From Auanema rhodensis (taxonomy: Eukaryota > Animalia > Nematoda), in the NCBI GenBank assembly GCA_964057225.1, contig OZ059898.1, positions 14,012,001 through 14,076,000 on the forward strand: a DNA stretch of 64,000 nucleotides, in the 5' to 3' direction. The stretch's first letter is position 1; every line of letters begins with the position of its first letter. The notes below the pieces were generated by a model. The model was not told where the DNA came from, did not search any database, and was given only the letters and a program-made list of their open reading frames with translations. Shown here one piece after another: positions 155 through 60,812 of the stretch. The translations under genes and the position numbers were made by a program.

Positions 155-158
155 TGTA

Positions 159-2302: not shown

Positions 2303-2374
2303 TGCGTTCGGGGGGAATCAAACCCCCGTCGAATGCTTGGAAGGCATCCATGCTGACCATTACACCACGAACGC
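2303..2374 (-). pseudogene. tRNA-Gly(TCC) C56T B-box mutant, probably transcriptionally impaired (also 5243, 6046, 8183, 8986, 11926, their duplicates where present, and 54338)
   Basis: + strand gaatcaaacc gives a T-loop of TTTGATT instead of TTCGATT; C56 is invariant in tRNAs and important for TFIIIC binding. Confidence 0.7.
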
Positions 2375-11300: not shown

Positions 11301-13122
11301 GAAAATTCAAAAATGGACAAGCTCAAGTACTTTCAAAATCTTTGCAACATATTGCAAAACGTCAAACCATTCTTAAAAAATGAAAAATGTATGCGTTCGG
11401 GGGAAATCGAACCCCCGTCGAATGCTTGGAAGGCATCCATGCTGACCATTACACCACGAACGCTACGATGGCTCTTGAACTATTTGATTAGATGAGTTGA
11501 CACATCTTTGACTTCATATATAATTACGAATGAAAAGCAGTAACATATTTTTTTCAAACGTTTCACATCAAAAAATCAAAAATGGACAAGCTCAAGTATT
11601 TTCCAAATCTTTGCAACATATTGCAAAACGTCAAACCATTCTTAAAAAATGAAAAATGTATGCGTTCGGGGGAAATCGAACCCCCGTCGAATGCTTGGAA
11701 GGCATCCATGCTGACCATTACACCACGAACGCTACAATAGGTTGTGAACTATTAGATTAGATGAGTTGACACATCTTTGACTTCATATATAATTACGAAT
11801 GAAAAGCAGAAACATATTTTTTTCAAACGTTTCACATCAAAAATTCAAAAATGGACAAGCTCAAGTATTTTCAAAATCTTTGCAACATATTGCAATCAAA
11901 TCATTCACAAAAAATGAAAAATGTATGCGTTCGGGGGGAATCAAACCCCCGTCGAATGCTTGGAAGGCATCCATGCTGACCATTACACCACGAACGCTAC
12001 GATGGCTCTTGAACTGTTAGATTAGATGAGTTGACACATCTTTGACTTCATTGATAATTACGAATGAAAAGCAGTAACATATTTTTTTCAAACGTTTCAC
12101 ATCGAAAATTCAAAAATGGACAAGCTCAAGTACTTTCAAAATCTTTGCAACATATTGCAAAACGTCAAATCATTCAGCAAAAATGAAAAATGTATGCGTT
12201 CGGGGGAAATCGAACCCCCGTCGAATGATTGGAAGGCATCCATGCTGACCATTACACCACGAACGCTACAATAGGTTGTGAACTATTAGATTAGATGAGT
12301 TGACACATCTTTGACTTCATTGATAATTACGAATGAAAAGCAGTAACATATTTTTTTCAAACGTTTCACATCAAAAATTCAAAAATGGACAAGCTCAAGT
12401 ATTTTCAAAATCTTTGCAATATATTGCAATCAAATCATTCACAAAAAATGAAAAATGTATGCGTTCGGGGGGAATCGAACCCCCGTCGAATGCTTGGAAG
12501 GCATCCATGCTGACCATTACACCACGAACGCTACGATGGCTCTTGAACTATTAGATTAGATGAGTTGACACATCTTTGACTTCATTGATAATTACGAATG
12601 AAAAGCAGTAACATATTTTTTTCAAACGTTTCACATCAAAAATTCAAAAATGGACAAGCTCAAGTACTTTCAAAATCTTTGCAACATATTGCAATCAAAT
12701 CATTCACAAAAAATGAAAAATGTATGCGTTCGGGGGGAATCGAACCCCCGTCGAATGCTTGGAAGGCATCCATGCTGACTATTACACCACGAACGCTACG
12801 ATGGCTCTTGAACTATTAGATTAGATGAGTTGACACATCTTTGACTTCATATATAATTACAGAATGAGAAGCAGAAACATATTTTTTTAACGTTTCACAT
12901 CAAAAAATCAAAAATGGACAAGCTCAAGTATTTTCAAGATCTTTGCAACATATAGCAAAACGTCAAACCATTCTTAAAAAATGAAAAATGTATGCGTTCG
13001 GGGGGAATCGAACCCCCGTCGAATGCTTGGAAGGCATCCATGCTGACCATTACACCACGAACGCTACGATGGCTCTTGAACTATTAGATTAGATGAGTTG
13101 ACACATCTTTGACTTCATATAT

Positions 13123-13467
13123 CGTTCCGTTATGCTCCTGCGTCGATAATATAAACCATTGTAGTTTATACTATGACGCGCATAGTATTCCTTGGTGTAG
13201 CGGTAAGGAATAAAGAGCATAAGGTCAATCATAAGATAAAAGAGAGAAAGATTTATTAGCATGAAACTACAACAATAATATACAAAGATAAAGATACAAT
13301 ACAATAAGATAAATATAAGTATAAAGACTAAACTACAAGCCGTCCATGAGCTTGCTAAGAGGCGAACTCCCGACCAAGGGAACGAGGGAAGGCGGAGCCA
13401 TTCCTCGGTCCTCTGGTCGTCTGGCTCTAACCCTTCAGCTACATATATGGGGAGTCCGAATGGAACG
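13123..13467 (-). mobile_element. Solo LTR (345 bp) of gypsy family B
   Basis: Reverse complement is near-identical to LTRs at 55592 and 58811; CGTTCC...GGAACG termini; 4 bp TSD ATAT (13119-13122 / 13468-13471) restores the spacer sequence gacttcatatataattac. Confidence 0.95.
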
Positions 13468-14617
13468 ATATAATTACAGAATGAAAAGCAGAAACATATT
13501 TTTTTCAAACGTTTCACATCAAAAATTCAAAAATGGACAAGCTCAAGTATTTTCAAGATCTTTGCAACATATAGCAAAACGTCAAACCATTCTTAAAAAA
13601 TGAAAAATGTATGCCTTCGGGGGGAATCGAACCTCCGTCGAATGCTTGGAAGGCATCCATGCTGACCATTACACCACGAACGCTACAATAGGTTGTGAAC
13701 TATTAGATTAGATGAGTTGACACATCTTTGACTTCATATATAATTACGAATGAAAAGCAGTAACATATTTTTTTCAAACGTTTCACATCAAAAATTCAAA
13801 AATGGACAAGCTCAAGTACTTTCAAAATCTTTGCAACATATTGCAAAACGTCAAACCATTCTTAAAAAATGAAAAATGTATGCGTTCGGGGGGAATCGAA
13901 CCCCCGTCGAATGCTTGGAAGGCATCCATGCTGACCATTACACCACGAACGCTACGATGGCTCTTGAACTATTAGATTAGATGAGTTGACACATCTTTGA
14001 CTTCATTGATAATTACGAATGAAAAGCAGAAACATATTTTTTCAACGTTTCACATCAAAAATTCAAAAATGGACAAGCTCAAGTATTTTCAAAATCTTTG
14101 CAACATATTGCAATCAAATCGTTCACAAAAAATGAAAAATGTATGCGTTCGGGGGGAATCGAACCCCCGTCGAATGCTTGGAAGGCATCCATGCTGACCA
14201 TTACACCACGAACGCTACGATGGCTCTTGAACTATTTGATTAGATGAGTTGACACATCTTTGACTTCATTGATAATTACGAATGAAAAGCAGTAACATAT
14301 TTTTTTCAAACGTTTCACATCAAAAATTCAAAGATGGACAAGCTCAAGTATTTTCAAAATCTTTGCAACATATTGCAATCAAATCGTTCAGAAAAAATGA
14401 AAAATGTGTGCTTTCGGGGGGAATCGAACCCCCGTCGAATGCTTGGAAGGCATCCATGCTGACCATTACACCACGAACGCTACAATAGGTTGTGAACTAT
14501 TAGATTAGATGAGTTGACACATCTTTGACTTCATATATAATTACAGAATGAAAAGCAGAAACATATTTTTTTCAAACGTTTCACATCAAAAATTCAAAAA
14601 TGGACAAGCTCAAGTAT

Positions 14618-14982
14618 CGTTCCATGCGGACGCCTAGTGTATGTAGTTAGTGGGTTAGAGTTAGACTGACTAGAGGACTGAGGAATAGCTCCGCCTTACC
14701 TCGGTTCTCTAACCAGGAGTTCGCCTCTTAGCAAGCCCATGGACGGTTTGTATCTAGTTTAGTTTATCTTGTACATTAGTCATTGTCTTGTAAATGTAGT
14801 CTACTCCATTCTTGTATTATTGTAGTGTAATGTTGTTGTATCGTGTATAATAAATCTATCCTTTTCCTTATCTTATGATATCCTTATGCTCTGTTTTCAT
14901 ACGCTACACTTATGGAATACTATCCGCGTAGTTGAGCAGACTACAATGGTCTGTTCAGTATACGCAGGAGCATAATGGAACG
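14618..14982 (+). repeat. 5' LTR, family A copy 1
   Basis: Direct repeat of 25768-26132; 8 bp terminal inverted repeat CGTTCCAT/ATGGAACG; AATAAA at 14849-14854. Confidence 0.96.
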
Positions 14983-14995
14983 TGGAGGTTCCACC
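14983..14995 (+). promoter_or_regulatory. Primer binding site complementary to the tRNA-Gln 3' end
   Basis: TGGAGGTTCCACC directly after the LTR is the reverse complement of ...GGTGGAACCT-CCA of metazoan tRNA-Gln (from memory). Confidence 0.88.
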
Positions 14996-15079
14996 TCGAA
15001 CTCACTTTTGATCAAAATTAACCTCGAAAAGTCCATTTTTTGAAACTAAATTAAAATTTCCTCCACGGTTAGCAACTAA

Positions 15080-15690
15080 ATGTAGGCGCCAACTTGTATT
15101 TAGGGTACAGATACAAGGGATCTCTTTTGATTGAGAGATAGGACAAAAATTTTTCAAAAATTGCCCGCCGTTCTCATATTTAAACCGTCTGAATGTCCAC
15201 CCTTTGTAATACCGTATCTCGTACCGCTTCTTATGCATTTTTTTTTGAGGACGTTTGGACTAAAATAGAGAACGATTTTACCAGACGAAAACTAATCGAA
15301 TTTTGATTACATTTTGCAATGAGAAGAATAACTCTTGGAAACAAAATAACATAAACGCGCGCATAACTATAACATTTTTAATTTTGTGGTCAGGACTAGC
15401 ATACTTCAAATTATGATCATATTCAGACGCACAAGATCACAGATTGAATAACATTTTGCGGGAAATTGACTGAAAGTCAGAGAAAATCATTAAGATAGAC
15501 CACACTAGTCCGAAAAATCCTGGTAAATCTGCTCAGTGAGACTTTTTTAGCTCTTACTTGACAGTCAGGTCAGGTTGGCGAAAACATAACTGCTTTGGAT
15601 TTTATCCCCATAGAGTATGTAACCTTCCTCAACTCATTTTGTTGCATACATCATAAGATAACCACATATTCCTACCGTAACCTTAAAATT
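15080..15690 (+). ncRNA. Conserved structured cis-acting RNA domain in the retroelement leader (function unknown)
   Basis: Multiple complementary segment pairs conserved in family B (56045-56640), several with compensatory or G.U-consistent changes; 1-nt indels between families argue against coding. Confidence 0.65.
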
Positions 15691-16321
15691 TTCACATATT
15701 TCTGTTAAAACCGGAATAATTTTCGTATTCTTCAGCAAATAAGCGAAAAAAAAAAAAAAAAATTTTCTCGTTCTTTTGTTGTTCATATTTGATTGCGAAA
15801 TTTTATTTAATAATTTTACTTCAAAAAGGTACAATCGAAAAAAAAAAAAAAGAAAAAAGCGATGTAATTTTCTATTCATTTGTGAACGACAAAGGAAACA
15901 CAAAGTAAACTTATGCCTCATACACTTTTTGTATTGTGAAGGTTATTCAAAATGGTTGCAATTCCATTTTGAAATTGGTTCCAAGTGACTAAAAGAACCG
16001 GAAACACAAAAGAAAAAAAAAATTTTTGAAAAGTACACATGTACAACAAACACCGTCATTACGGATTTAATAGAAGGACCGAGTATGTCAAATTATAAAC
16101 ACGATTGCTGATTGCCGAATACGGTGGATGGGCGGAGTTAGATCTCTGGCCAAGATTGAAAATTCCTTCTCATTCACCCTGCAGCATCGCCCCAGCGACG
16201 CACGAAAAGTTTCTACTTTAATACAACTCTCATCCTATCTACAGAATACTCAGCTACTAACGTCAACATCCCTCACGTAGCCCACCACTCTCGGTTTTTC
16301 CAAACCAAGAGTACTACAAAG

Positions 16322-19300
16322 GTGGCAAAGAGATTTGCTTCGGCTTTTTCAGCCCTTCACCCATCAGATTCTAACAGCGACGCTACCGTCGCTAGCCGTA
16401 CAAGAAGCCGCACACGACTCCTCAGTGTTCAAATAGAAGAGTCTAATCAGCCGGACGAAAAGCCGAAACCACAACTCGACAAATTCTATACTCCACGCGA
16501 AGGTACATATTCACCTTCTGACGACACCGACGAAGACCCGGACTTCATCATAGCCGACGGCAACGCTCAAACTCCCACTACAAACCCCAAGGTACGCTCA
16601 TTTAATACTAATAAAAATCGAAAAATTCAAAAAGAAAATCCGACAACCGTATCTGCCTCTCCTGTTAACTCAGATCCAAACACTTTATCAGCTATCACTG
16701 ATAACACACTCTCTCCTTCTATAGAGCTAACCCAGAGTCCACAGGCGTATTCCGCAACTACAGACCTTCGAAACTCTTCAAATCAAGAGCTCACCGAAGC
16801 TAATACTAGCCAATCTCCTTTATCAGCTATCACTGATAAGCTCAAAAAGAATATTTCCAATAAGAGGAAAACCAGCACACCCCGTAAACGAACAAAAGTA
16901 ACCACTGAGGCAGAAGCACCCTCCGCAGAAGCTTCAGAAGTTTCACCGTTATCACTTACAACTGATAAGTACAAAAACAAGAGATCGTTAACAGCCCGAC
17001 TGATAAAGATCTTAAACTTATCTCCAGGTGATAAAGCAACAACTCCCAATACCGTAAGACCTCGATTTGCTTCACATAACTCTTATCTTAACAAATCAGA
17101 TAGCGCAATCCTTAGCTCCCAATCAACTCCTATAACACCGCCTCAGGCATCTGGCAGGGTTATCAAGGTCCAAAAAGCTCGTTCTACAACAGCGGTTCCC
17201 GTTATAAGCTCTTCAATCGATTCAGAGACCGGTGGCTCTTCAGAGACAAGAAGAAACACTTACCCAGAAGCATCAATAAGTGAAGTGATAACATCACCTA
17301 TCACACACCCCAAAGGCATTTCATCAGAAATGACTGAAACACCACGTCTCCCGGGAGCTGGTAAATCAACCATTGCTCAGGCATTAAGCTCTCCATACTG
17401 CCCCATATATGATGGAAGTCGTAACTTTCGAGATTTCGTTGCGAAATTTAACACCTTCTCTAATGCCTTAGGCTTAGTGATGCCTGAGAGATTAACTATC
17501 TTGCCTCTACTTCTCAAAAATGAAAGAGCGGAAGAAGCTTATACACAGCTGGCCAATGAAATAAAGACAGCTGGACCTTGGATCACACTGATCGAAGAGT
17601 TAACATCGAAGCTTTGCCCTGAATATAATCAGGACCCGGCACTGATAACGCTTCAAAATTCCACCCAAGGCGACTTATCAGTGGATGGATTTGCGCAAAC
17701 CCTACGTAACTTAAGTTTGAACGCATTTTCTCAGAGTGATCCTCACAAGGATCACATCCTCCGATCAACATTTTTGCGAGGACTCAAAAACAGCATACGC
17801 CCTGGGGTAATCAGAGCAAAACCCAAAACTTTTTCTGAAGCTATTGATAACGCCCGTTGGGAAGAATCAATAGCTAATCAAGTAGCTGACCCTCAAGCGT
17901 TACTTGTAAACGCAATAGAAAGAACATTCCCACAAAGGAGAGATCCTGGTAGGCGAGGAAACGGTAGAGGATATCAATCATTCAACAATAAAAATTATCA
18001 AAATTATCAAAATTATCAAAATTCATCAAACTATCAAAAACCTCAAAATTATCAAAATTCATTTGCAAGAAATCGCAATTTTGGTAATCGCGGTCGAAAT
18101 TTTTCAAATCAACCTAACTCGAATTGGTATCAAAGAAATAATACTTTATCACGCAACCAGGAGATAAACGATAACCGTCAACGCTTAAATAATCCCTTCA
18201 GGGGAAATAACAACAACAGAGGAAGAGGAAGAGGCTCTAGAGTCAATAACTTGACTTTAATATCTCCTTTAACATTAGCAGTAGCTTTATCAGTAATCTT
18301 ATCACTGATCACCACTGTGGAAGCTTATCAGCTATGCACAAAAGCTACCGGAGGAGCCCTTCTGATTCCACCTTCCCTTAGAAAATGTTCCATACCATCA
18401 ACAAAACACGTGCTTCGGACAAGAATTCATCTTTACACAAGAAATCAAACAGCTCACGAATGGGACGCCTGGAGATGCTCTAAAGAGGTTCATAAAATAT
18501 GTATAAGAGACCTCCTATTTCTTCGAGACTACAACAGTACAGTTGACAGAATCGAAAAAATACCAGCCGCAGAATGCAGGTTGGCAGTACGAGATAGGAA
18601 ATGGAGCTCTGAGGAATTGAAAAAACTTGATAGCATTACATATGCAACAAACGAGCCAACATTTTCGCCCGGACGATCGCTCAATAATGAACAATGCGAA
18701 GAAAAACCTCGACTGGTACTAGAACGAGGAGTAATGACAAGAATGCCAGATGACACTGTAATATCGAATTTAATTTTGAATACTGAAGGCTGTCTTTCGC
18801 ATCACGGAGAATGTGCGTCTAACACTTCTATAATCATTTGGGACAAACAGCCTTACGAGAATCGTTGTAATTACATTGACATGAGCGAATATGATGCTAT
18901 AATTGGAGACAGCATCATTCTCATCCCAACAACGCAGTCTGCACTTGTCATTGAGAACAAAAAAGTCCCGAAAGAAATATCATCTTGTTTCCAACAACCA
19001 ATTTTTCACACTACAACTGGAAATTATATTCTCTTCCCGAAGTTCCCAAACGACATCAATATACATGAACTGATCGAAAGAGAATTCAAGAAATTACCGC
19101 CAAAAAGGACAAAAAGAGCCATTGCAGAATGCAAGGTTGAAATGAACAAAGAATGGATTCAACAACAGGAAGATTTTGAAACAATAATTTTAAACATATG
19201 CCCATATCCATTTCTCCGACCAGTTATGAGCAACCCGGGAATTTCCCAAATTATCCCACTCATGCGTAGCAGACAAATAGCAGATCCTTCATACTCTGTT

Positions 19301-22300
19301 GTCGACTGGATTTCCGCACATCCTGAGAAATTCTATTTCTTTCTTCGAAATCCCGTCTCAGATAAATCAATACAACGATTTTTCAAAATTTACGAACTGC
19401 GTAACCCTGAAGAGGCTATACTCTTCTTTTTGGCACAAAAAGAGCTGGCAGCAACCACAAGAGGCGCTATCCGGTACCTTACTTCTCTACAACTATTAGA
19501 GCAGATCGGCGACAGATTGTCAGCGGAAGAATTTGACGAAAAACTCTTAAAGAAAGATGGATCATACCGCGAAAGAGCAGAAATCATAGCATTAGAACTA
19601 GCATTTACGCCCGTAGTATTTGAAAACAACTTGTCGGTACCATCAAAACAAGAAGTTTTAAAAGCCTTTGTGAACATGCCGCCTACGAGGCCCAGTTTAA
19701 CGACTGATAGTGAGGAGGAGAGAAGAGTACTTGAAAACACTCTCGACTTATATCACAACATAATCAAACTACGCGTGGCTAGGCCAAATAGAACGATAGC
19801 CGCCAAGGATGATGAAAGGTTTCGTCATCTGCCGGTTCCTGCCACCAAACTACCAGATATACATACATTATACCACGATATAGAGAACAATTTTGGTATA
19901 CCGGTGGGCCCACATCCTCGTATACAGAATCCTAGCAAAGATACGCGAGAATTGCTCATTCGGACATTCCTACCTTTGCTAGAAGACACACGCAAACCAC
20001 CTTACTTGAGTAGAAGACTGCCTATTACCACCACTCAAATGACACCACTATCAGGGCCTCCGGAAACAATTTACAAAGAACCTACAAAAAGTCAGACGAC
20101 CTATGCACCACAGCCAGTAACAAAAACCGCTACCTTGGTGCAGCAAACAACAAGATTTGATGAAACTACTGAGACAACCACGACACACGCAACAAGCACG
20201 ATGTTATATGCTTTGTACACTGAGAAAACACCTTCAACAATGACACCCATATCCGAAACCACGCTACGCTCCTTAAGGAAACAAAGAACATCATCGCCTC
20301 CTATAGAAACAAAAGCGATTCAGGCTCAGAGCAATTATATAGCATCAAAAGTGAACAATGAAATGCAAACTAATCAAAATACATCTCGAAAAATAGCACA
20401 AGATCATCTGCAATACGCTACCACAATTGTGCAGGAAGAACTACAACGACATTTTGTGGAATCTTTTGAATCCATATGTGAAATCCAGAATAGATACCTG
20501 GAATTATGGCGTTCTATTTTACAAATAGAGCCCACAATTGCAATGAGGACCATACTAGGTAGAGACGATATTGCAGCGCGTTTTGTGGGCAGCGAGATAG
20601 TACATGTTCACATATGTCTACCTCTGAAGCCTAAGACTGTTCATTATTCACATAAGATCAACGAAACTTGCTATCTAGAGACGCCAGTAACAACAGAGGA
20701 GAATAAATTGTATTTTGCTGCACCAGGATCGAAAGATTTATTGACACATGGAAAAGAAATAAATTGCGATCACGTACCAACTGATGTATATTCAAAAGAT
20801 GGCGAGTGGATGAATGTCAATGGGTCGGTAGAAGTGAACCCCATCTCACTTCTTGATGGTGCTCACCATCATCAAATTACACCATTGAAATTTACAGGAG
20901 CTCATCTTTATACGAATCTTTCATCACGAATATACTCAATGACTACAGCAATCGCATACGGAGCTAGTCTTGCATCAATACGACAAAATCACGTATTACA
21001 TACCATTCACAATGATCCTCAAATAACATCGACATTTAATCTTTTGAAAAGGGGCAGCGATTATATCTCGAAAGCTAAAGAATTTACATCTACAGCCTGG
21101 AACAGTGTCATAGATAGTTTGATAGGGTCAATTGAAAAAACACTCATATTCATAGGATCCGTGGTCATAATTATCGCATTGACCATTATTGTTATCGTCA
21201 TCGCTAAACTATACTTCTGTAAAACAATGCCGTTACCTATCATGCACATTCAAGGCATGGATCATGAGCCCCCAGGCTATGAAGAAACATTGGAACTTGT
21301 TAGTCGAGCAGATCAACCAATGCCAGAAAGCATAATGAAACAATACTATCCAGCTCTGGTGACATTTATTCCATTAGCAATGCCATTCATCTCTTCTATT
21401 AGAGCAACGGAAACAAAGTTACCTTTGATATACATATCAGTAGAGGACAAGCTGATACTAGCACTATGGGATTCAGGCTCATCAGTCTCATATGTTAGGC
21501 TATCGACACTAAAATATTTAAATATGGCTCAACATATTAAAAAGAGACGTTTAGTTGCAATGGCTGCTAATAAATCAACATTCACATTATATGGAAAAAT
21601 AGAACTCATTATTGAAATTGCTGGTTATGAAATCGAACACACATTTTTGGTCTCGAGCGATAACGATTGCCCAGCCCCAGCGTTAATTGGACTCGACTTC
21701 ATGAAAACGCTCGATAGCGAAAACATCGACGTCAGCCTGAAACCATCCAAAAAAACGCTCGAGATTGGTAACCACGCTCTTCCTTTGATTGAACAAGAAG
21801 TCATTAAACAGAAATCAATAACTGTAAACATCATCAATTTAAAAAGACGTATACTACAGCCTGAAGAAGAAGCTCCTATACCAATCAAAACAGACAGGCC
21901 ACTCGAACAAAACGAAGTGGTAGTCTTAGGAGACAACGGAAGCGCGTTAGCCACCAGTTATCCAACAGCGTTTCGTGATACATGTGGAGTATATGTTATA
22001 TTCAGAAACAATACAGATAAAACGATAGAAATAGAACCCAACTCGGTAATTGGGCAAGCAAACATAGGAGAAATCCAGTCCTGGCAGTCCATCAAGAACG
22101 AGCCAACAACGCCTTATATACCACCCGAGGCAGACTGGGAAAACAAATTACCACACTTTCCCAGAGATTTCATGAAAGACCTTAACCTTGAGAAAGCTGA
22201 CCTAACAAAGGAAGATAAACAAGAACTAACAAAAATAATCGAACAACATAGGGAAGCTTTTCTAAATGAAGATAGAAAAATAGGCTTATTCAAAGGACCC

Positions 22301-25138
22301 GTCGAACATACTATTCCATTAAGAACGGACATGGATATGCCAAGACCAAGAATAACACGTATTCCACTTGGAAAACAAGAAGAAATAGAAAGACAAATCC
22401 TAGAAATGCTTGAACAAGACATTATTGAACCATCTACATCTTTGTTCAATAGCCCTGTAGTATTGGTCAAGAAGAAAGACGATACTTATAGGTTCGTGAC
22501 AGATTTTCGAGCCTTAAATAACGTAACACGCAAGCAAACATATGTAATACCAAGCATTTCGGACATAGTTGACATGGCAGCGGGAGCTAAATTCTTCTCA
22601 AACTTCGACTTAGTATCAGGATTCTTTCAAATATCTTTACGGAAATCAGATCGACGATTAACAGCATTTACTACAACATCAGGAACGTATCAATACAAAC
22701 GTATGCCTATGGGTCTCTGTGGAGCCCCACATACATTTCAAACAGCTGTAAGATACTTGCAAAGTAAATGTTCTTGCAAACTATTTGTCTACCTGGACGA
22801 TCTATTAGTCATATCAGATACAAGAGAACAACATCTCAAAGACATCGACGAATTATTGCACGCAGTAGAAAAATTAGGAATGAAAATAAAGCTCAAGAAA
22901 TGCGCTTTTGCACAACCAGAAGTGAAATTCTTAGGACTAATAGTTGGACGACAAGGAATGAAGCCAGATCCTCAAAAGGTCGCGGCTATACAGGACTATC
23001 CTGCACCTAAGAACGCAACAGGAGTACGCGCTTTCTTAGGAATGGTTGGATTCTTTCGAAAATTTATAAAAGATTTTGCACGGATCGCAAGTCCTTTATA
23101 CGACTTAACAAAGGCAGAGACTGAATTTATATGGAATAAAGAACATCAAGAAGCTATAGATCTCCTAAAAAGAAGTCTTATACAGGCACCCGTGTTAAGC
23201 CCACCAAAATCAGATCGCTTATTTATCATTGAAAGCGACGGGAGTAACATTGCCATAGGTGCCGTATTACTACAACCAGAAGATCCAAGACAACCTCTAA
23301 AGAATCTACATCCAATCGCATTTGCAAGCAGAAAATTAGTAAAAGCAGAAAGGAATTATGCGCCTATAGAAATAGAAGCGCTAGGCCTAGTGTACGCGCT
23401 AAATCAGTTTCGAACATATATTCTTGGAACACATACAATATGCATTACGGACCATCGACCTCTTACTAGCTTACTAACGCGAAGAGACTTATTTGGACGA
23501 CTCGCGAAATTTCAGCTAGTAATCCAAGAATACGATATCGAGATAAGATATAGAGAAGGCCAATTGAACAAAGTATGCGATGCTTTATCCCGATACATAG
23601 GAGAAGAAGCCAACGACGCAAGGCCTGAGACGAAGAAGAAGAAGAAAAAGGAAGAAATTCACATAAATGCCATAAATACACCAACAATAAAGGAGCTTCA
23701 ACTAAACACCCCTTGGATTAAAAGAACGATAGCGGAGATAGAATATAGAGCACAAAAGAATATGACAGCAAACGATAGATACTGCGTTATAAACGATTTG
23801 CTCTATACAAGACCAACAGACAAAAAGCCTCATCCTGCAATCGTTATACCACAAGACCATCCAATAACGGACGAAATTATCAAATTATTTCACGAAGATC
23901 CCACCATAGCAGCACATCAAGGAATAAATAAGACAAAGGAAGCAATATTAAGAAGATTTTATTGGACAAACATGCAGAATGACATCACAATGTTTATCAA
24001 AAACTGCATAAAATGTGCGCAAAGAAAGAAGGATCCCCATTCTATGACAGTTCAACCAATCGGACAATTTGAAATACCAAGTAAACCATTCGAACGGGTT
24101 CACATGGATATTATGGGACCATTCCCTCCCACACGAAGAAATTGCACCCATGTAATTACCATACAAGACTCATTCACTAAGTGGGCGACAACAATAGCAG
24201 TTCCGTGTATTACAACAGAAATTACCATCGACAGATTTCTAAGGAATTTTGTATACATTTATGGACCTCCCCAGCGACTGATCACCGACCGAGGATCCAA
24301 TTTTGTATCAAAAAAGTTCGAAGAAATGTGTAAAATGGTTGGAATAATACATGAACCTACCCTTCCTCATCAAAAGAACTCTAACGGTCAAGTCGAAAGA
24401 CTACATAGAACGTTAGAGGAAGGGTTAACACACTATATGAAAGAAGACCTAAGCGAATGGGATACCATTTTACCCAAGATTACTTTCGCGATCAACAATA
24501 TTCAGCACGCTACAACCGGAATTGCACCATATGTAGCACTATTCGGAAAAGAAGGCAGAATGATACTCGATGCCGAATTACCAGACACCATACGGAGAAT
24601 ACAGGAAATTTCTGATGAACTACTAGCAAGAAAGCCACAAATGATGAAAAGAAACCAAATAATTCATGACCGAATAGCGCAGAATCAAGAAAATGCAAAG
24701 AAAAAGAAGGACCAAACACAAAGAACGCGCGACAGAAATATACAACCAGGAGATATGGTCATGACCACTATAAAATCACATCAAATTGGTCAGAAACTAC
24801 GAAAAAGCTACGATGGACCCTTCGAAGTCATCAATGTCGAAGGATCTAAGGTCCAAATAAGGAATGGAGCAGGAAAAATTCAAGACATTCATAAAGACAA
24901 CCTCAAATTATTCTCTAATTCGGAACAAGACAGCGCTTACAATACCAGAGCGAGCAAATGGAAACAACAAGCCGAGGAAGAAGACGACAGCGATATTGAG
25001 GTCATCGAAGTAATAAAAGGGAACAAGGGAAGCGACTCAGAAACAGAACCAGAATCAGAAATGGAGGATGGAAACGAACTATGGTTACCGACTAATACGA
25101 ACCGACAGAGAATAAAAAAAGTAAAATATTATAATTGA
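16322..25138 (+). CDS. Gag-Env-Pol polyprotein (2938 aa from GTG; first in-frame ATG at 17330)
   Basis: Capsid-like PIYDGS...FLRGL region; N/Q/R/G-rich segment; signal peptide 18251-18325; Cys-rich ectodomain; furin site RTKR 19106-19117; gB-like block 20474-20767; TM 21143-21205; protease LWDSGS (21470); RT YLDD (22790); RNase H ESDGS/TDHRPL/DALSR; integrase H-H-CxxC, MDIMGP, TDRGSNF, NGQVER, GPF. Confidence 0.96.
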   Translation: MAKRFASAFSALHPSDSNSDATVASRTRSRTRLLSVQIEESNQPDEKPKPQLDKFYTPREGTYSPSDDTDEDPDFIIADGNAQTPTTNPKVRSFNTNKNRKIQKENPTTVSASPVNSDPNTLSAITDNTLSPSIELTQSPQAYSATTDLRNSSNQELTEANTSQSPLSAITDKLKKNISNKRKTSTPRKRTKVTTEAEAPSAEASEVSPLSLTTDKYKNKRSLTARLIKILNLSPGDKATTPNTVRPRFASHNSYLNKSDSAILSSQSTPITPPQASGRVIKVQKARSTTAVPVISSSIDSETGGSSETRRNTYPEASISEVITSPITHPKGISSEMTETPRLPGAGKSTIAQALSSPYCPIYDGSRNFRDFVAKFNTFSNALGLVMPERLTILPLLLKNERAEEAYTQLANEIKTAGPWITLIEELTSKLCPEYNQDPALITLQNSTQGDLSVDGFAQTLRNLSLNAFSQSDPHKDHILRSTFLRGLKNSIRPGVIRAKPKTFSEAIDNARWEESIANQVADPQALLVNAIERTFPQRRDPGRRGNGRGYQSFNNKNYQNYQNYQNSSNYQKPQNYQNSFARNRNFGNRGRNFSNQPNSNWYQRNNTLSRNQEINDNRQRLNNPFRGNNNNRGRGRGSRVNNLTLISPLTLAVALSVILSLITTVEAYQLCTKATGGALLIPPSLRKCSIPSTKHVLRTRIHLYTRNQTAHEWDAWRCSKEVHKICIRDLLFLRDYNSTVDRIEKIPAAECRLAVRDRKWSSEELKKLDSITYATNEPTFSPGRSLNNEQCEEKPRLVLERGVMTRMPDDTVISNLILNTEGCLSHHGECASNTSIIIWDKQPYENRCNYIDMSEYDAIIGDSIILIPTTQSALVIENKKVPKEISSCFQQPIFHTTTGNYILFPKFPNDINIHELIEREFKKLPPKRTKRAIAECKVEMNKEWIQQQEDFETIILNICPYPFLRPVMSNPGISQIIPLMRSRQIADPSYSVVDWISAHPEKFYFFLRNPVSDKSIQRFFKIYELRNPEEAILFFLAQKELAATTRGAIRYLTSLQLLEQIGDRLSAEEFDEKLLKKDGSYRERAEIIALELAFTPVVFENNLSVPSKQEVLKAFVNMPPTRPSLTTDSEEERRVLENTLDLYHNIIKLRVARPNRTIAAKDDERFRHLPVPATKLPDIHTLYHDIENNFGIPVGPHPRIQNPSKDTRELLIRTFLPLLEDTRKPPYLSRRLPITTTQMTPLSGPPETIYKEPTKSQTTYAPQPVTKTATLVQQTTRFDETTETTTTHATSTMLYALYTEKTPSTMTPISETTLRSLRKQRTSSPPIETKAIQAQSNYIASKVNNEMQTNQNTSRKIAQDHLQYATTIVQEELQRHFVESFESICEIQNRYLELWRSILQIEPTIAMRTILGRDDIAARFVGSEIVHVHICLPLKPKTVHYSHKINETCYLETPVTTEENKLYFAAPGSKDLLTHGKEINCDHVPTDVYSKDGEWMNVNGSVEVNPISLLDGAHHHQITPLKFTGAHLYTNLSSRIYSMTTAIAYGASLASIRQNHVLHTIHNDPQITSTFNLLKRGSDYISKAKEFTSTAWNSVIDSLIGSIEKTLIFIGSVVIIIALTIIVIVIAKLYFCKTMPLPIMHIQGMDHEPPGYEETLELVSRADQPMPESIMKQYYPALVTFIPLAMPFISSIRATETKLPLIYISVEDKLILALWDSGSSVSYVRLSTLKYLNMAQHIKKRRLVAMAANKSTFTLYGKIELIIEIAGYEIEHTFLVSSDNDCPAPALIGLDFMKTLDSENIDVSLKPSKKTLEIGNHALPLIEQEVIKQKSITVNIINLKRRILQPEEEAPIPIKTDRPLEQNEVVVLGDNGSALATSYPTAFRDTCGVYVIFRNNTDKTIEIEPNSVIGQANIGEIQSWQSIKNEPTTPYIPPEADWENKLPHFPRDFMKDLNLEKADLTKEDKQELTKIIEQHREAFLNEDRKIGLFKGPVEHTIPLRTDMDMPRPRITRIPLGKQEEIERQILEMLEQDIIEPSTSLFNSPVVLVKKKDDTYRFVTDFRALNNVTRKQTYVIPSISDIVDMAAGAKFFSNFDLVSGFFQISLRKSDRRLTAFTTTSGTYQYKRMPMGLCGAPHTFQTAVRYLQSKCSCKLFVYLDDLLVISDTREQHLKDIDELLHAVEKLGMKIKLKKCAFAQPEVKFLGLIVGRQGMKPDPQKVAAIQDYPAPKNATGVRAFLGMVGFFRKFIKDFARIASPLYDLTKAETEFIWNKEHQEAIDLLKRSLIQAPVLSPPKSDRLFIIESDGSNIAIGAVLLQPEDPRQPLKNLHPIAFASRKLVKAERNYAPIEIEALGLVYALNQFRTYILGTHTICITDHRPLTSLLTRRDLFGRLAKFQLVIQEYDIEIRYREGQLNKVCDALSRYIGEEANDARPETKKKKKKEEIHINAINTPTIKELQLNTPWIKRTIAEIEYRAQKNMTANDRYCVINDLLYTRPTDKKPHPAIVIPQDHPITDEIIKLFHEDPTIAAHQGINKTKEAILRRFYWTNMQNDITMFIKNCIKCAQRKKDPHSMTVQPIGQFEIPSKPFERVHMDIMGPFPPTRRNCTHVITIQDSFTKWATTIAVPCITTEITIDRFLRNFVYIYGPPQRLITDRGSNFVSKKFEEMCKMVGIIHEPTLPHQKNSNGQVERLHRTLEEGLTHYMKEDLSEWDTILPKITFAINNIQHATTGIAPYVALFGKEGRMILDAELPDTIRRIQEISDELLARKPQMMKRNQIIHDRIAQNQENAKKKKDQTQRTRDRNIQPGDMVMTTIKSHQIGQKLRKSYDGPFEVINVEGSKVQIRNGAGKIQDIHKDNLKLFSNSEQDSAYNTRASKWKQQAEEEDDSDIEVIEVIKGNKGSDSETEPESEMEDGNELWLPTNTNRQRIKKVKYYN
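18251..21280 (+). other. Envelope glycoprotein region within the polyprotein (class III fusogen-like, herpesvirus gB/chuvirus G type)
   Basis: Hydrophobic LTLAVALSVILSLITTVEA|YQLC signal; CEIQNRYLELWRSILQIEPTIAMRTILGRDDIAARFVGSEIVHVHICLPL...CYLETPV parallels HSV gB [45 protein letters not shown]...CYSRPLV (recalled); N-glycosylation sequons; single C-terminal TM. Confidence 0.82.
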
Positions 25139-25756
25139 TAACGATGAATTAGAAATTTCTTTGCAAGACATTAGAAATAGGCATCAAAAGAAGAGATTTC
25201 AAAAAATAATAAACTTATGATGATATTAATTAATACTAAGACCAAAGCCGTAAAACTATGCTGATTACAGAGATTTGAAACTTGTGAAAAAAAAAATAAT
25301 ATAATAAATAAATAAATCAATAAAATGAAAAGCTCTACATGCCTCCCCATGATAGATGAGACGAACACTGACAGGCATATAGACCACATGTCAACTGAGT
25401 GGTAGCCGCCATTAGTACTCGAGGATTCGCTCTGGGAGACAGGTAGAGACAGAGAAAAATAGAAATCAATACCTCTACCACAGCTAGTATACGAGTTAGC
25501 AGTTGCAAGTATTAGTACAATGACCAAACTATACAAAAGCGATATACAAAAAAAAAAAAAAAAAATCTCTACTTATGATGACTATATGAAACAAACATAT
25601 GAACTAAATATAAAAATTCTAATTCTTCGTTACCAAAAATTACGTATTTCATATTATTGTGTTAAAATTTTTTTTTCTCTCCAAACTGTAAAACACAACT
25701 ACATACCAACTCAAAAACTTTTTGGTTAAAATTCGCGAGGACGCGAAAAATCTTTT

Positions 25757-25765
25757 GAAAAAGGG
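25757..25765 (+). promoter_or_regulatory. Polypurine tract
   Basis: GAAAAAGGG followed by CA and the 3' LTR; same motif in family B (58800-58808). Confidence 0.85.
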
Positions 25766-25767
25766 CA

Positions 25768-26132
25768 CGTTCCATGCGGACGCCTAGTGTATGTAGTTAG
25801 TGGGTTAGAGTTAGACTGACTAGAGGACTGAGGAATAGCTCCGCCTTACCTCGGTTCTCTAACCAGGAGTTCGCCTCTTAGCAAGCCCATGGACGGTTTG
25901 TATCTAGTTTAGTTTATCTTGTACATTAGTCATTGTCTTGTAAATGTAGTCTACTCCATTCTTGTATTATTGTAGTGTAATGTTGTTGTATCGTGTATAA
26001 AAAATCTATCCTTTTCCTTATCTTATGATATCCTTATGCTCTGTTTTCATACGCTACACTTATGGAATACTATCCGCGTAGTTGAGCAGACTACAATGGT
26101 CTGTTCAGTATACGCAGGAGCATAATGGAACG
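25768..26132 (+). repeat. 3' LTR, family A copy 1
   Basis: Same as the 5' LTR except T>A at 26001; followed by TSD GTAT. Confidence 0.96.
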
Positions 26133-29100
26133 GTATTTTCAAGATCTTTGCAACATATAGCAAAACGTCAAACCATTCTTAAAAAATGAAAAATGTATGC
26201 CTTCGGGGGGAATCGAACCTCCGACGAATGCTTGGAAGGCATCCATGCTGACCATTACACCACGAACGCTACGATGGCTCTTGAACTATTAGATTAGATG
26301 AGTTGACACATCTTTGACTTCATATATAATTACAGAATGAAAAGCAGAAACATATTTTTTTCAAACGTTTCACATCAAAAAATCAAAAATGGACAAGCTC
26401 AAGTATTTTCAAAATCTTTGCAACATATTGCAATCAAATCGTTCAGAAAAAATGAAAAATGTGTGCGTTCGGGGGGAATCGAACCCCCGTCGAATGCTTG
26501 GAAGGCATCCATGCTGACCATTACACCACGAACGCTACAATAGGTTGTGAACTATTAGATTAGATGAGTTGACACATCTTTGACTTCATTGATAATTACG
26601 AATGAAAAGCAGTAACATATTTTTTTCAAACGTTTCACATCAAAAAATCAAAAATGGACAAGCTCAAGTATTTTCAAAATCTTTGCAACATATTGCAATC
26701 AAATCGTTCAGAAAAAATGAAAAATGTGTGCGTTCGAGGGGAATCGAACCCCCGTCGAATGCTTGGAAGGCATCCATGCTGACCATTACACCACGAACGC
26801 TACAATAGGTTGTGAACTATTAGATTAGATGAGTTGACACATCTTTGACTTCATATATAATTACGAATGAAAAGCAGTAACATATTTTTTTCAAACGTTT
26901 CACATCAAAAATTCAAAAATGGACAAGCTCAAGTATTTTCAAAATCTTTGCAACATATAGCAAAACGTCAAACCATTCTTAAAAAATGAAAAATGTATGC
27001 CTTCGGGGGGAATCGAACCTCCGTCGAATGCTTGGAAGGCATCCATGCTGACCATTACACCACGAACGCTACGATGGCTCTTGAACTATTAGATTAGATG
27101 ACTTGACACATCTTTGACTTCATATATAATTACAGAATGAAAAGCAGAAACATATTTTTTTCAAACGTTTCACATCAAAAAATCAAAAATGGACAAGCTC
27201 AAGTATTTTCAAAATCTTTGCAACATATTGCAATCAAATCATTCACAAAAAATGAAAAATGTATGCGTTCGGGGGGAATCGAACCCCCGTCGAATGCTTG
27301 GAAGGCATCCATGCTGACCATTACACCACGAACGCTACAATAGGTTGTGAACTATTAGATTAGATGAGTTGACACATCTTTGACTTCATATATAATTACG
27401 AATGAAAAGCAGTAACATATTTTTTTCAAACGTTTCACATCAAAAATTCAAAAATGGACAAGCTCAAGTATTTTCAAAATCTTTGCAACATATTGCAATC
27501 AAATCGTTCAGAAAAAATGAAAAATGTGTGCGTTCGGGGGGAATCGAACCCCCGTCGAATGCTTGGAAGGCATCCATGCTGACCATTACACCACGAACGC
27601 TACAATAGGTTGTGAACTATTAGATTAGATGAGTTGACACATCTTTGACTTCATATATAATTACGAATGAAAAGCAGTAACATATTTTTTTCAAACGTTT
27701 CACATCAAAAATTCAAAAATGGACAAGCTCAAGTATTTTCAAAATCTTTGCAACATATTGCAATCAAATCATTCACAAAAAATGAAAAATGTATGCGTTC
27801 GGGGGGAATCGAACCCCCGTCGAATGCTTGGAAGGCATCCATGCTGACCATTACACCACGAACGCTACGATGGCTCTTGAACTATTAGATTAGATGAGTT
27901 GACACATCTTTGACTTCATTGATAATTACGAATGAAAAGCAGTAACATATTTTTTTCAAACGTTTCACATCAAAAAATCAAAAATGGACAAGCTCAAGTA
28001 TTTTCAAAATCTTTGCAACATATTGCAATCAAATCATTCACAAAAAATGAAAAATGTATGCGTTCGGGGGGAATCGAACCCCCGTCGAATGCTTGGAAGG
28101 CATCCATGCTGACCATTACACCATGAACGCTACGATGGCTCTTGATCTATTAGATTAGATGAGTTGACACATCTTTGACTTCATTGATAATTACGAATGA
28201 AAAGCAGTAACATATTTTTTTCAAACGTTTCACATCAAAAATTCAAAAATGGACAAGCTCAAGTATTTTCAAAATCTTTGCAACATATTGCAATCAAATC
28301 ATTCACAAAAAATGAAAAATGTATGCGTTCGGGGGGAATCGAACCCCCGTCGAATGCTTGGAAGGCATCCATGCTGACCATTACACCACGAACGCTACGA
28401 TGGCTCTTGAACTATTAGATTAGATGAGTTGACACATCTTTGACTTCATTGATAATTACGAATGAAAAGCAGTAACATATTTTTTTCAAACGTTTCACAT
28501 CAAAAAATCAAAAATGGACAAGCTCAAGTATTTTCAAAATCTTTGCAACATATTGCAATCAAATCGTTCAGAAAAAATGAAAAATGTGTGCGTTCGGAGG
28601 GAATCGAACCCCCGTCGAATGCTTGGAAGGCATCCATGCTGACCATTACACCACGAACGCTACAATAGGTTGTGAACTATTAGATTAGATGAGTTGACAC
28701 ATCTTTGACTTCATATATACATACGAATGAAAAGCAGTAACATATTTTTTTCGAACGTTTCACATCAAAAATTCAAAAATGGACAAGCTCAAGTACTTTC
28801 AAAATCTTTGCAACATATTGCAAAACGTCAAATCATTCAGCAAAAATGAAAAATGTATGCGTTCGGGGGGAATCGAACCCCCGTCGAATGCTTGGAAGGC
28901 ATCCATGCTGACCATTACACCACGAACGCTACGATGGCTCTTGAACTATTAGATTAGATGAGTTGACACATATTTGACTTCATTGATAATTACGAATGAA
29001 AAGCAGTAACATATTTTTTTCAAACGTTTCACATCAAAAATTCAAAAATGGACAAGCTCAAGTATTTTCAAAATCTTTGCAACATATTGCAATCAAATCG

Positions 29101-32100
29101 TTCAGAAAAAATGAAAAATGTGTGCGTTCGGGGGGAATCGAACCCCCGTCGAATGCTTGGAAGGCATCCATGCTGACCATTACACCACGAACGCTACAAT
29201 AGGTTGTGAACTATTAGATTAGATGAGTTGACACATCTTTGACTTCATATATAATTACGAATGAAAAGCAGTAACATATTTTTTTCAAACGTTTCACATC
29301 AAAAATTCAAAAATGGACAAGCTCAAGTACTTTCAAAATCTTTGCAACATATTGCAAAACGTCAAACCATTCTTAAAAAATGAAAAATGTATGCGTTCGG
29401 GGGGAATCGAACCCCCGTCGAATGCTTGGAAGGCATCCATGCTGACCATTACACCACGAACGCTACGATGGCTCTTGAACTATTAGATTAGATGAGTTGA
29501 CACATCTTTGACTTCATTGATAATTACGAATGAAAAGCAGTAACATATTTCTTTAAAGGTTTCACGTAAAAAGTTAAAAAATGGACAAGCTAAAGTACTT
29601 TCAAAATCTTTGCAACATATTGCAAAACGTCAAATCATTCAGCAAAAATGAAAAATGTATGCGTTCGGGGGGAATCGAACCCCCGTCGAATGCTTGGAAG
29701 GCATCCATGCTGACCATTACACCACGAACGCTACGATGGCTCTTGAACTATTAGATTAGATGAGTTGACACATCTTTGACTTCATTGATAATTACGAATG
29801 AAAAGCAGTAACATATTTTTTTCAAACGTTTCACATCGAAAATTCAAAAATGGACAAGCTCAAGTACTTTCAAAATCTTTGCAACATATTGCAAAACGTC
29901 AAACCATTCTTAAAAAATGAAAAATGTATGCGTTCGGGGGAAATCGAACCCCCGTCGAATGCTTGGAAGGCATCCATGCTGACCATTACACCACGAACGC
30001 TACGATGGCTCTTGAACTATTTGATTAGATGAGTTGACACATCTTTGACTTCATATATAATTACGAATGAAAAGCAGTAACATATTTTTTTCAAACGTTT
30101 CACATCAAAAAATCAAAAATGGACAAGCTCAAGTATTTTCAAAATCTTTGCAACATATTGCAAAACGTCAAACCATTCTTAAAAAATGAAAAATGTATGC
30201 GTTCGGGGGAAATCGAACCCCCGTCGAATGCTTGGAAGGCATCCATGCTGACCATTACACCACGAACGCTACAATAGGTTGTGAACTATTAGATTAGATG
30301 AGTTGACACATCTTTGACTTCATATATAATTACGAATGAAAAGCAGAAACATATTTTTTTCAAACGTTTCACATCAAAAATTCAAAAATGGACAAGCTCA
30401 AGTATTTTCAAAATCTTTGCAACATATTGCAATCAAATCATTCACAAAAAATGAAAAATGTATGCGTTCGGGGGGAATCAAACCCCCGTCGAATGCTTGG
30501 AAGGCATCCATGCTGACCATTACACCACGAACGCTACAATAGGTTGTGAACTATTAGATTAGATGAGTTGACACATCTTTGACTTCATTGATAATTACGA
30601 ATGAAAAGCAGTAACATATTTTTTTCAAACGTTTCACATCGAAAATTCAAAAATGGACAAGCTCAAGTACTTTCAAAATCTTTGCAACATATTGCAAAAC
30701 GTCAAACCATTCTTAAAAAATGAAAAATGTATGCGTTCGGGGGAAATCGAACCCCCGTCGAATGCTTGGAAGGCATCCATGCTGACCATTACACCACGAA
30801 CGCTACGATGGCTCTTGAACTATTTGATTAGATGAGTTGACACATCTTTGACTTCATATATAATTACGAATGAAAAGCAGTAACATATTTTTTTCAAACG
30901 TTTCACATCAAAAAATCAAAAATGGACAAGCTCAAGTATTTTCAAAATCTTTGCAACATATTGCAAAACGTCAAACCATTCTTAAAAAATGAAAAATGTA
31001 TGCGTTCGGGGGAAATCGAACCCCCGTCGAATGCTTGGAAGGCATCCATGCTGACCATTACACCACGAACGCTACAATAGGTTGTGAACTATTAGATTAG
31101 ATGAGTTGACACATCTTTGACTTCATATATAATTACGAATGAAAAGCAGAAACATATTTTTTTCAAACGTTTCACATCAAAAATTCAAAAATGGACAAGC
31201 TCAAGTATTTTCAAAATCTTTGCAACATATTGCAATCAAATCATTCACAAAAAATGAAAAATGTATGCGTTCGGGGGGAATCAAACCCCCGTCGAATGCT
31301 TGGAAGGCATCCATGCTGACCATTACACCACGAACGCTACGATGGCTCTTGAACTATTAGATTAGATGAGTTGACACATCTTTGACTTCATTGATAATTA
31401 CGAATGAAAAGCAGTAACATATTTTTTTCAAACGTTTCACATCAAAAAATCAAAAATGAACAAGCTCAAGTATTTTCAAAATCTTTGCAACATATTGCAA
31501 TCAAATCATTCACAAAAAATGAAAAATGTATGCGTTCGGGGGAAATCGAACCCCCGTCGAATGCTTGGAAGGCATCCATGCTGACCATTACACCACGAAC
31601 GCTACGATGGCTCTTGAACTATTTGATTAGATGAGTTGACACATCTTTGACTTCATTGATAATTACGAATGAAAAGCAGTAACATATTTTTTTCAAACGT
31701 TTCACATCAAAAATTCAAAAATGGACAAGCTCAAGTACTTTCAAAATCTTTGCAACATATTGCAAAACGTCAAACCATTCTTAAAAAATGAAAAATGTAT
31801 GCGTTCGGGGGGAATCGAACCCCCGTCGAATGCTTGGAAGGCATCCATGCTGACCATTACACCACGAACGCTACGATGGCTCTTGAACTATTAGATTAGA
31901 TGAGTTGACACATCTTTGACTTCATTGATAATTACGAATGAAAAGCAGAAACATATTTTTTCAACGTTTCACATCAAAAATTCAAAAATGGACAAGCTCA
32001 AGTATTTTCAAAATCTTTGCAACATATTGCAATCAAATCGTTCACAAAAAATGAAAAATGTATGCGTTCGGGGGGAATCGAACCCCCGTCGAATGCTTGG

Positions 32101-38100: not shown

Positions 38101-39837
38101 ATTTTTTTAACGTTTCACATCAAAAAATCAAAAATGGACAAGCTCAAGTATTTTCAAGATCTTTGCAACATATAGCAAAACGTCAAACCATTCTTAAAAA
38201 ATGAAAAATGTATGCGTTCGGGGGGAATCGAACCCCCGTCGAATGCTTGGAAGGCATCCATGCTGACCATTACACCACGAACGCTACGATGGCTCTTGAA
38301 CTATTAGATTAGATGAGTTGACACATCTTTGACTTCATATATCGTTCCGTTATGCTCCTGCGTCGATAATATAAACCATTGTAGTTTATACTATGACGCG
38401 CATAGTATTCCTTGGTGTAGCGGTAAGGAATAAAGAGCATAAGGTCAATCATAAGATAAAAGAGAGAAAGATTTATTAGCATGAAACTACAACAATAATA
38501 TACAAAGATAAAGATACAATACAATAAGATAAATATAAGTATAAAGACTAAACTACAAGCCGTCCATGAGCTTGCTAAGAGGCGAACTCCCGACCAAGGG
38601 AACGAGGGAAGGCGGAGCCATTCCTCGGTCCTCTGGTCGTCTGGCTCTAACCCTTCAGCTACATATATGGGGAGTCCGAATGGAACGATATAATTACAGA
38701 ATGAAAAGCAGAAACATATTTTTTTCAAACGTTTCACATCAAAAATTCAAAAATGGACAAGCTCAAGTATTTTCAAGATCTTTGCAACATATAGCAAAAC
38801 GTCAAACCATTCTTAAAAAATGAAAAATGTATGCCTTCGGGGGGAATCGAACCTCCGTCGAATGCTTGGAAGGCATCCATGCTGACCATTACACCACGAA
38901 CGCTACAATAGGTTGTGAACTATTAGATTAGATGAGTTGACACATCTTTGACTTCATATATAATTACGAATGAAAAGCAGTAACATATTTTTTTCAAACG
39001 TTTCACATCAAAAATTCAAAAATGGACAAGCTCAAGTACTTTCAAAATCTTTGCAACATATTGCAAAACGTCAAACCATTCTTAAAAAATGAAAAATGTA
39101 TGCGTTCGGGGGGAATCGAACCCCCGTCGAATGCTTGGAAGGCATCCATGCTGACCATTACACCACGAACGCTACGATGGCTCTTGAACTATTAGATTAG
39201 ATGAGTTGACACATCTTTGACTTCATTGATAATTACGAATGAAAAGCAGAAACATATTTTTTCAACGTTTCACATCAAAAATTCAAAAATGGACAAGCTC
39301 AAGTATTTTCAAAATCTTTGCAACATATTGCAATCAAATCGTTCACAAAAAATGAAAAATGTATGCGTTCGGGGGGAATCGAACCCCCGTCGAATGCTTG
39401 GAAGGCATCCATGCTGACCATTACACCACGAACGCTACGATGGCTCTTGAACTATTTGATTAGATGAGTTGACACATCTTTGACTTCATTGATAATTACG
39501 AATGAAAAGCAGTAACATATTTTTTTCAAACGTTTCACATCAAAAATTCAAAGATGGACAAGCTCAAGTATTTTCAAAATCTTTGCAACATATTGCAATC
39601 AAATCGTTCAGAAAAAATGAAAAATGTGTGCTTTCGGGGGGAATCGAACCCCCGTCGAATGCTTGGAAGGCATCCATGCTGACCATTACACCACGAACGC
39701 TACAATAGGTTGTGAACTATTAGATTAGATGAGTTGACACATCTTTGACTTCATATATAATTACAGAATGAAAAGCAGAAACATATTTTTTTCAAACGTT
39801 TCACATCAAAAATTCAAAAATGGACAAGCTCAAGTAT
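26133..39837 (-). repeat. Tandem tRNA-Gly(TCC) array, block 2 (~50 units; contains one solo LTR)
   Basis: Same unit as block 1; tRNAs from 26198 to 39629. Confidence 0.97.
38343..38687 (-). mobile_element. Solo LTR family B, duplicated copy
   Basis: Matches 13123-13467 at +25220 with the same ATAT TSD. Confidence 0.95.

Positions 39838-60751: not shown

Positions 60752-60754
<3 letters not shown>

Positions 60755-60809: not shown

Positions 60810-60812
<3 letters not shown>

Follow-up and report, generated by a model that had tools for sequence, protein, structure and literature searches.

In the env-bearing BEL/Pao elements (Tas, Cer7, Atlas), Env is downstream of pol and Gag is of the DUF1759 type. 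In the flavivirus C-prM and alphavirus structural polyproteins, a cytosolic capsid comes first; next is an internal signal, with cleavage on either side of the membrane. A set of nematode elements named NERVs by Sacco and colleagues reportedly has one continuous gag-env-pro-pol ORF and a nyamivirus-like Env. Chary and Hayashi (eLife 2026, PMC13524379) described a gB-type ENV in the order GAG-ENV-POL in Nematoda, Bryozoa and Platyhelminthes, and credited Sacco et al. 2022 (J Gen Virol, PMID 35550022) with nematode ERVs in which ENV and POL are flipped. The nematode GAG-ENV-POL group has been little studied. A word search of the main text of PMC13524379 found no mention of in-frame fusion, polyprotein, splicing or late domains; that is, processing is not treated there, and the text is silent on how a membrane-spanning frame would be processed and on Gag excess. 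A literature search on late domains and processing of such elements found nothing beyond that paper, as far as its text goes.

We found an element with this layout in the window, the 64,000-nucleotide stretch of DNA that was analysed. The element extends from 14618 to 26132, LTR to LTR. Our preferred reading, which we consider quite probable, is that it is a young Ty3/gypsy LTR element, still intact and probably from a rhabditid nematode, with a gB-like fusogen between Gag and Pol in one frame, and that its predicted membrane-spanning polyprotein is processed by host signal peptidase, by furin and by the protease that the element encodes. The features of the element are listed below. Amino acid 1 is nucleotide 16322, the numbering of an earlier sequence-only reading of this DNA.

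14614..14617, plus strand: left copy of a 4-bp target-site duplication (right copy at 26133-26136)
14618..14982, plus strand: 5' LTR of 365 bp, with CG...CG inverted termini, not TG...CA, and one mismatch to the 3' LTR
14983..14994, plus strand: primer-binding site of the tRNA-Gln type; its reverse complement is the 12-nt Gln_UUG_CUG entry in supplement 1 of PMC13524379
16123..16178, plus strand: predicted RNA hairpin, common to the sister element at 55592-59150, that buries the out-of-frame ATG at 16128
16160..25138, plus strand: one open frame of 2,992 codons, Gag-Env-PR-RT-RH-IN
16262..17329, plus strand: Met-free N-terminal extension of 356 codons, rich in S, T and P, with its first 99 codons under purifying selection
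17330..18253, plus strand: Gag from the first ATG, with a capsid-like domain, then an N/Q/R/G-rich region without a zinc knuckle, and a terminal protease-like site VN/NL
18254..18325, plus strand: internal signal peptide, aa 645-668, with small residues at -3/-1
18326..21142, plus strand: class III (gB-like) fusogen ectodomain
19106..19117, plus strand: furin-type site RTKR, aa 929-932
19118..20011, plus strand: lineage-restricted helical insert (~300 aa) past the furin site, aa 933-1230, without a fold match
20012..20296, plus strand: mucin-like stalk, 38% Ser/Thr, pLDDT < 50
21146..21211, plus strand: transmembrane (TM) anchor, aa 1609-1630
21212..21406, plus strand: cytosolic tail or spacer with protease-like sites IM/HI and IS/SI, PPGY (21269-21280) and YPAL
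21407..21811, plus strand: aspartic protease (PR), DSG at aa 1717
22466..22942, plus strand: reverse transcriptase (RT), YLDD
23132..23533, plus strand: RNase H (RH)
23864..24601, plus strand: integrase (IN), HHCC and DDE core
25757..25765, plus strand: short purine run ahead of the 3' LTR, candidate PPT
25768..26132, plus strand: 3' LTR

The location of Env within the polyprotein is real. The sequence-only reading had described an uninterrupted ORF in which a signal peptide, a Cys-rich ectodomain, a furin site, a gB-like block and a TM segment lie between Gag and PR-RT-RH-IN, and the open frame, Pfam and hydropathy all agreed with this anatomy. The Pfam family Monjiviricetes_fusion matched above its cut-off (E 3e-14) between the gag/capsid matches and PR-RT-RH-IN, and Glycoprotein_B matched in the Env region (E 5e-8), below its curated cut-off. 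The gag/capsid matches in the window's Gag are weak (E 0.005-0.009, below cut-off); a homologue, P0002, clears the cut-off for Retrotrans_gag. The order of the Pol domains, PR-RT-RH-IN, is that of Ty3/gypsy (Metaviridae). Two slippery-like heptamers, at 18097 and 18202, are candidates for a frameshift that would terminate Gag. Two details of the earlier description had to be changed. The domain anatomy stood, but the start that had been placed at 16322 is a GTG, and the first in-frame ATG is at 17330. The label 'nucleocapsid' was dropped: a motif scan found no CCHC knuckle in that N/Q/R/G-rich region of Gag.

The element has the structural features of a Ty3/gypsy element: paired LTRs, a tRNA primer site, a purine tract and a short target duplication. 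Based on the 365-bp LTRs with a single mismatch, the 4-bp duplication and the primer site, the element is young and structurally complete. The catalytic motifs of PR, RT and IN are unbroken.

Could the layout be an assembly artefact, or a one-off recombinant in which an env was fused into a dead element? The locus contains a 25-kb exact duplication in a tandem array, where misassembly is common. However, DNA contigs from another run (X5) have the same frame. They cover 16530-21186, 21271-22564 and 22535-25534 with three letters changed and zero gaps, and they argue against a chimera at the Gag/Env junction, although the X5 study includes possible source runs and is not fully independent. X5 contigs also join 14613/14614 to 26133-26137; that is, they represent empty array units. 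In addition, the order recurs in 65 homologues and has been published, and intact catalytic motifs are not those of a dead element. An artefact or a one-off fusion is hardly credible for the layout and is already largely refuted; the second copy of the element alone is possibly artefactual. The second copy and the surroundings of the element are as follows.

1..60688, minus strand: ~269-bp tandem array with one tRNA-Gly(TCC) gene per unit, interrupted by LTR elements
13123-13469 and 38343-38689, minus strand: solo LTR of the sister family, in opposite orientation, with a 4-bp target duplication
39838..51352, plus strand: second, identical element copy (frame 41380-50358)
55592-59150, plus strand: non-autonomous 3.56-kb deletion derivative of the sister family (~74% identical), with LTRs 99% identical
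60688-64000+, plus strand: start of a BEL/Pao-type element with DUF1759 Gag and protease; its frame, 61240-63999, runs past the window edge

There are 125 tRNA-Gly(TCC) genes in the window, in 20 sequence variants, the commonest of which occurs 56 times. The two copies of the element lie 25,220 bp apart in a tandem duplication, which also takes in array units and the solo LTR (3548-28781 versus 28768-54001, with 2 differences only). The identity of the copies runs for 22.4 kb and includes the flanks, indicating that one insertion was duplicated with its surroundings, by unequal crossing-over within the array very recently, or that the duplication arose in assembly. As one duplicated insertion, the two copies are no evidence of repeated transposition. 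The sister element at 55592-59150 has the primer site, leader, hairpin and first ~100 codons of the window element; its 3' LTR is without the last 5 bp, and its target duplication is irregular.

We also considered tRNA targeting at a fixed distance, like that of Ty3. The distance to the nearest tRNA 5' end varies among the four independent insertions (solo LTR, 58 bp; BEL/Pao, 70 bp; sister, 106 bp; window element, 137 bp), and fixed-distance targeting is therefore unsupported. The four insertions fit loose tRNA targeting and passive accumulation alike.

The identification of Env as a gB-like class III fusogen, made originally from the sequence, agrees with three kinds of structural matches. 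We used an AlphaFold2 model of aa 669-1607 that was built from 21 sequences (pLDDT 64, pTM 0.45). The best match in a Foldseek search of the PDB was HSV gB (E 3.7e-11). Matches in BFVD included rhabdo-like, nyamivirus and herpes glycoproteins (Nyavirus G, E 1.2e-11), and class III fusogens filled the top ten rows from VIA-align (Z 10.4 to 5.5), with prefusion HSV gB at Z 8.7 (rmsd 9.9, 372 aligned). Global TM-scores of the model against gB were low (0.13-0.20, rmsd 26-29 Å), which is explained by a pLDDT < 50 at 352 of 939 residues and by a different placement of the domains. Judging from the model, the class III gB-like fold class of Env is secure and its conformation is not.

Env is similar to herpesvirus gB and to the G proteins of rhabdoviruses, nyamiviruses and chuviruses in fold class, central helix, cysteines and the presence of a furin site after the N-terminal domains and ahead of the central helix. 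Unlike these glycoproteins, it is one part of a polyprotein encoded by a retroelement, contains a ~400-aa insert plus stalk, and is without gH/gL partners. There are 16 Cys and 9 sequons in the ectodomain, and 14 of the 16 Cys are conserved across full-length homologues. RTKR is the sole R-x-K/R-R site of the polyprotein; several homologues, but not all, have a basic cluster at this position. A conserved hydrophobic hairpin tip in the model (aa 732-733) is a candidate fusion loop. The ~300-aa helical insert is full-length in 9 proteins, including that of the window, and partial in 8 more. Folded alone, it had a pLDDT of 70. BFVD gave 0 matches at E <= 0.001, the ESM Atlas gave none, and the best Z in VIA-align was 3.9; this lack of a fold match does not show a new fold.

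The sequence-only reading had called for a search for the same domain order in other nematodes, and the order recurs. Among 121 proteins from word-index searches, 19 have Env ahead of Pol in a single chain, as do 46 of 144 further Env homologues, although proteins taken from NCBI may be spliced gene models. Among the 144, capsid precedes Env in 28 (17 have both arrangements), and the rest have Pol before Env (7), Env only (78), or matches below cut-off (2). The named relatives with Env before Pol belong to Auanema, Caenorhabditis and Diploscapter, and they make a nematode host probable. Seven homologues (P0146, P0161, P0189, P0196, P0147, P0218 and P0234) have an Env of this kind joined behind integrase in one protein. 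For the DNA context of relatives, we found no locus among viral contigs; identity did not exceed 44% in 80 metagenome loci, none of which matched Env.

We compared RT-RH sequences in a quick tree of 60 rows, made without named reference families, that contained the window and 59 of the 121 proteins (others were omitted by rank or short match). The window element paired with an Auanema protein (67% identity) as its sister, and the two fell in a clade of 12 rows (SH-aLRT 98), all with Env before Pol. Three other Env-before-Pol proteins were placed outside this clade. Scattered tree placement of the GAG-ENV-POL layout is also reported in PMC13524379.

The layout had been put forward as possibly novel. 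This claim fails because the same order with a gB-type Env has already been published for nematodes (PMC13524379); in addition, the tree puts the RT among rhabditid elements with that order. By its domain order and Env type, the element belongs with the known nematode GAG-ENV-POL elements, and its layout is odd but already known. It is most readily compared with nematode elements of the Clat_errantivirus_4 type, which have a Ty3/gypsy Pol, GAG-ENV-POL order, a gB-type Env between signal and TM, and a ~11.5-kb span, as the window element does. Its tRNA-Gln primer site is identical in 12 of 12 nt to those of Clat_errantivirus_4 and Ctro_errantivirus_1, but not to those of all members. By eye, the Cys spacing of Env domains I-II looks the same as in Clat_errantivirus_4-type elements, and these Cys, which are conserved among homologues, resemble the Nematoda C1 rows. 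P0012, one of the Env-before-Pol proteins with which the window element groups in the RT tree, has an Env that resembles that of Clat_errantivirus_4, by eye only. No Auanema element is present among 30 of the 36 nematode rows of PMC13524379. In the published text that was searched, we did not find the likely protease sites on both sides of Env, the Met-free extension with its hairpin, the ~300-aa insert or a site in a tRNA-Gly array.

Cer1 of Caenorhabditis elegans had been suspected as a relative. It too is a nematode Ty3/gypsy element with the order PR-RT-RH-IN. In contrast to the window element, which has Env before Pol and is without CCHC, Cer1 has an extra ORF after pol and CCHC fingers in Gag (PMC10309623), and the suspicion was not borne out. 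The window element also does not have the characters of BEL/Pao; the DUF1759 Gag at this locus is that of the separate element at 60688 onward.

The predicted topology rests on hydropathy, measured in 19-aa windows with a threshold of 2.0. Only two such windows exceed 2.0: aa 645-663 (2.26) and aa 1609-1627 (3.36). A hydrophobic segment is located just before the first ectodomain Cys in 32 of 32 capsid-before-Env proteins, including that of the window. These two peaks and the conserved internal signal support the topology with signal peptide and TM anchor that had been proposed at the outset.

Sites that resemble those of the viral protease are found on either side of Env. Upstream, a [VI]Nx[VILM] site is within 35 aa of the signal in 18 of 32 proteins and is missing in 14. 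Downstream, we counted [VI]Nx[VIL] sites in spacers between TM and PR. In a first set, from which P0009, P0010 and P0018 were left out because their protease motif was not matched, there were 19 sites versus 1.9 in shuffled sequences (13 of 17 proteins), with the pattern itself derived from these same sequences. In a second set there were 27 versus 3.7 (16 of 34 proteins). None of 2000 shuffles reached the observed count in either set, in which relatives are not independent. The tail site of the window, IM/HI, is a variant that is not caught by the strict pattern, and variants of the site are found at domain borders in the window's protein (aa 529, 641, 1640, 1690, 1835 and 2448). These patterns indicate that viral protease sites are likely on both cytosolic sides of Env.

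Just before the protease, at aa 1675-1693 (21344-21400), most close relatives have a conserved hydrophobic block, P-x-[LM]-[TS]-[YF]-[IVL]-P. Its hydropathy, 1.4, is too weak for a membrane helix. The spacers also contain motifs like those of late domains. PPxY was rejected as a late domain of the whole family, since it occurs in 2 of 17 spacers in the first set and in 0 of 34 in the second. Classical late-domain motifs, pooled, numbered 7 versus 0.84 shuffled in the first set (6 of 17 proteins) and 4 versus 1.03 in the second (4 of 34 proteins), where one, YPWL at the TM edge, is likely spurious. Such motifs, PPGY and YPAL in the window, are a hint and not a family trait.

Based on this topology, we infer the following course of processing. 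Gag would be made in the cytosol. The internal signal (aa 645-668) would thread Env into the ER, with a signal peptidase cut at aa 668/669, and the anchor (aa 1609-1630) would bring Pol back to the cytosol. Furin would cut at aa 932. The viral protease would cut just before the signal, ~10 residues past the anchor, and just before PR, releasing Gag, a short-tailed Env, and Pol. Before these cuts, Gag and Pol would be held at the Env-bearing membrane, and capsid assembly and budding could thus be coupled to Env. The tethering of Pol to the membrane through the Env tail, suggested earlier, is likely only transient because protease-like sites flank the tail.

It is possible, but in our view rather unlikely, that splicing or early termination gives separate Gag, Env and Gag-Pol products, with little or none of the full polyprotein being produced. 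A capsid requires far more Gag than Pol. The window has a nematode-type splice acceptor, TTTTCAG, at 16346-16352, and Cer1 makes a spliced mRNA in addition to genomic RNA (PMC10309623). However, the acceptor at 16346 differs in the sister element, and no consensus acceptor turned up near the start of Env or before PR in a pattern scan. Furthermore, the frame is open across both Env junctions in many lineages, and the signal peptide is embedded in-frame in all 32 of the proteins compared. One contig (X14, from a run guessed to be RNA) is unspliced from TM to PR, a weak point against separate products.

The N-terminal extension bears on the same question: being Met-free and under selection, it needs a spliced exon or a non-AUG start. 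Between 16129 and 17329 there is no ATG in any frame, compared to 5.4 expected from a dinucleotide model (0 in 25 of 5000 draws). The first 99 codons from 16262 differ from those of the sister element at 12, 7 and 34 first, second and third positions, with a dN/dS of 0.11. This third-position bias and the low dN/dS make translation of the extension likely, by one of the two routes just named. The predicted hairpin upstream has 20 pairs; relative to the sister element there are 2 compensatory changes, 3 one-sided changes and 0 broken pairs, in a comparison of two sequences only, and the folding z-scores (-1.8 and -1.2) are weak. The hairpin could equally be a packaging signal. A myristoylated start at the ATG at 16128 is not favoured: this ATG is out of frame and is ATA in the sister element.

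We also weighed the possibility that the element moves within germ cells, and that Env is used for cell-to-cell passage in gonad or embryo or for membrane-coupled assembly and not for infection between animals. This is a tenable suggestion, which we hold tentatively and slightly disfavour. According to the Discussion of PMC13524379, transmission outside Drosophila is not known. Tandem tRNA loci are among the germline-restricted repeats of Auanema rhodense (bioRxiv 10.64898/2026.08.27.747507), and by analogy the tRNA array that holds the element may be germline-restricted and lost from soma. On the other hand, the cysteines and the candidate fusion loop of the fusogen are conserved, and near-identical DNA is found under four organism codes: 11 DNA runs from three DNA studies contain 83-100% of the sampled element words. 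This distribution could reflect spread among hosts or, equally, differing labels for one species or mixed samples. The contigs compared with the window all came from runs under one of these codes, organism A. There was no RNA run among the listed holders, and three runs guessed to be RNA cover mainly 23-25.8 kb and are not evidence of expression.

A more elaborate version of our preferred reading is a flavivirus-style retroelement. It would make a long, AUG-free Gag driven by the hairpin plus a short AUG form, thread the ER twice, and have its protease act on both sides of Env; the Env tail would carry ESCRT late domains, the insert would bind the target cell, and the provirus would reside in a germline-limited tRNA array. 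We regard this full combination as distinctly improbable. The likeness to flavivirus and alphavirus polyproteins is one of analogy, and homology is not claimed: the fusogen of the window is class III and its enzymes are retroviral.

An intact copy gives handles on processing and initiation in a group of elements for which these have had little attention: the internal signal, the flanking protease-like sites, the Met-free extension and the insert. If the four organism codes are different species, then the element has moved recently between hosts. Drosophila gypsy uses a route from soma to germline. That route would be unusable at this locus if the array proves to be confined to the germline of an Auanema-like host.
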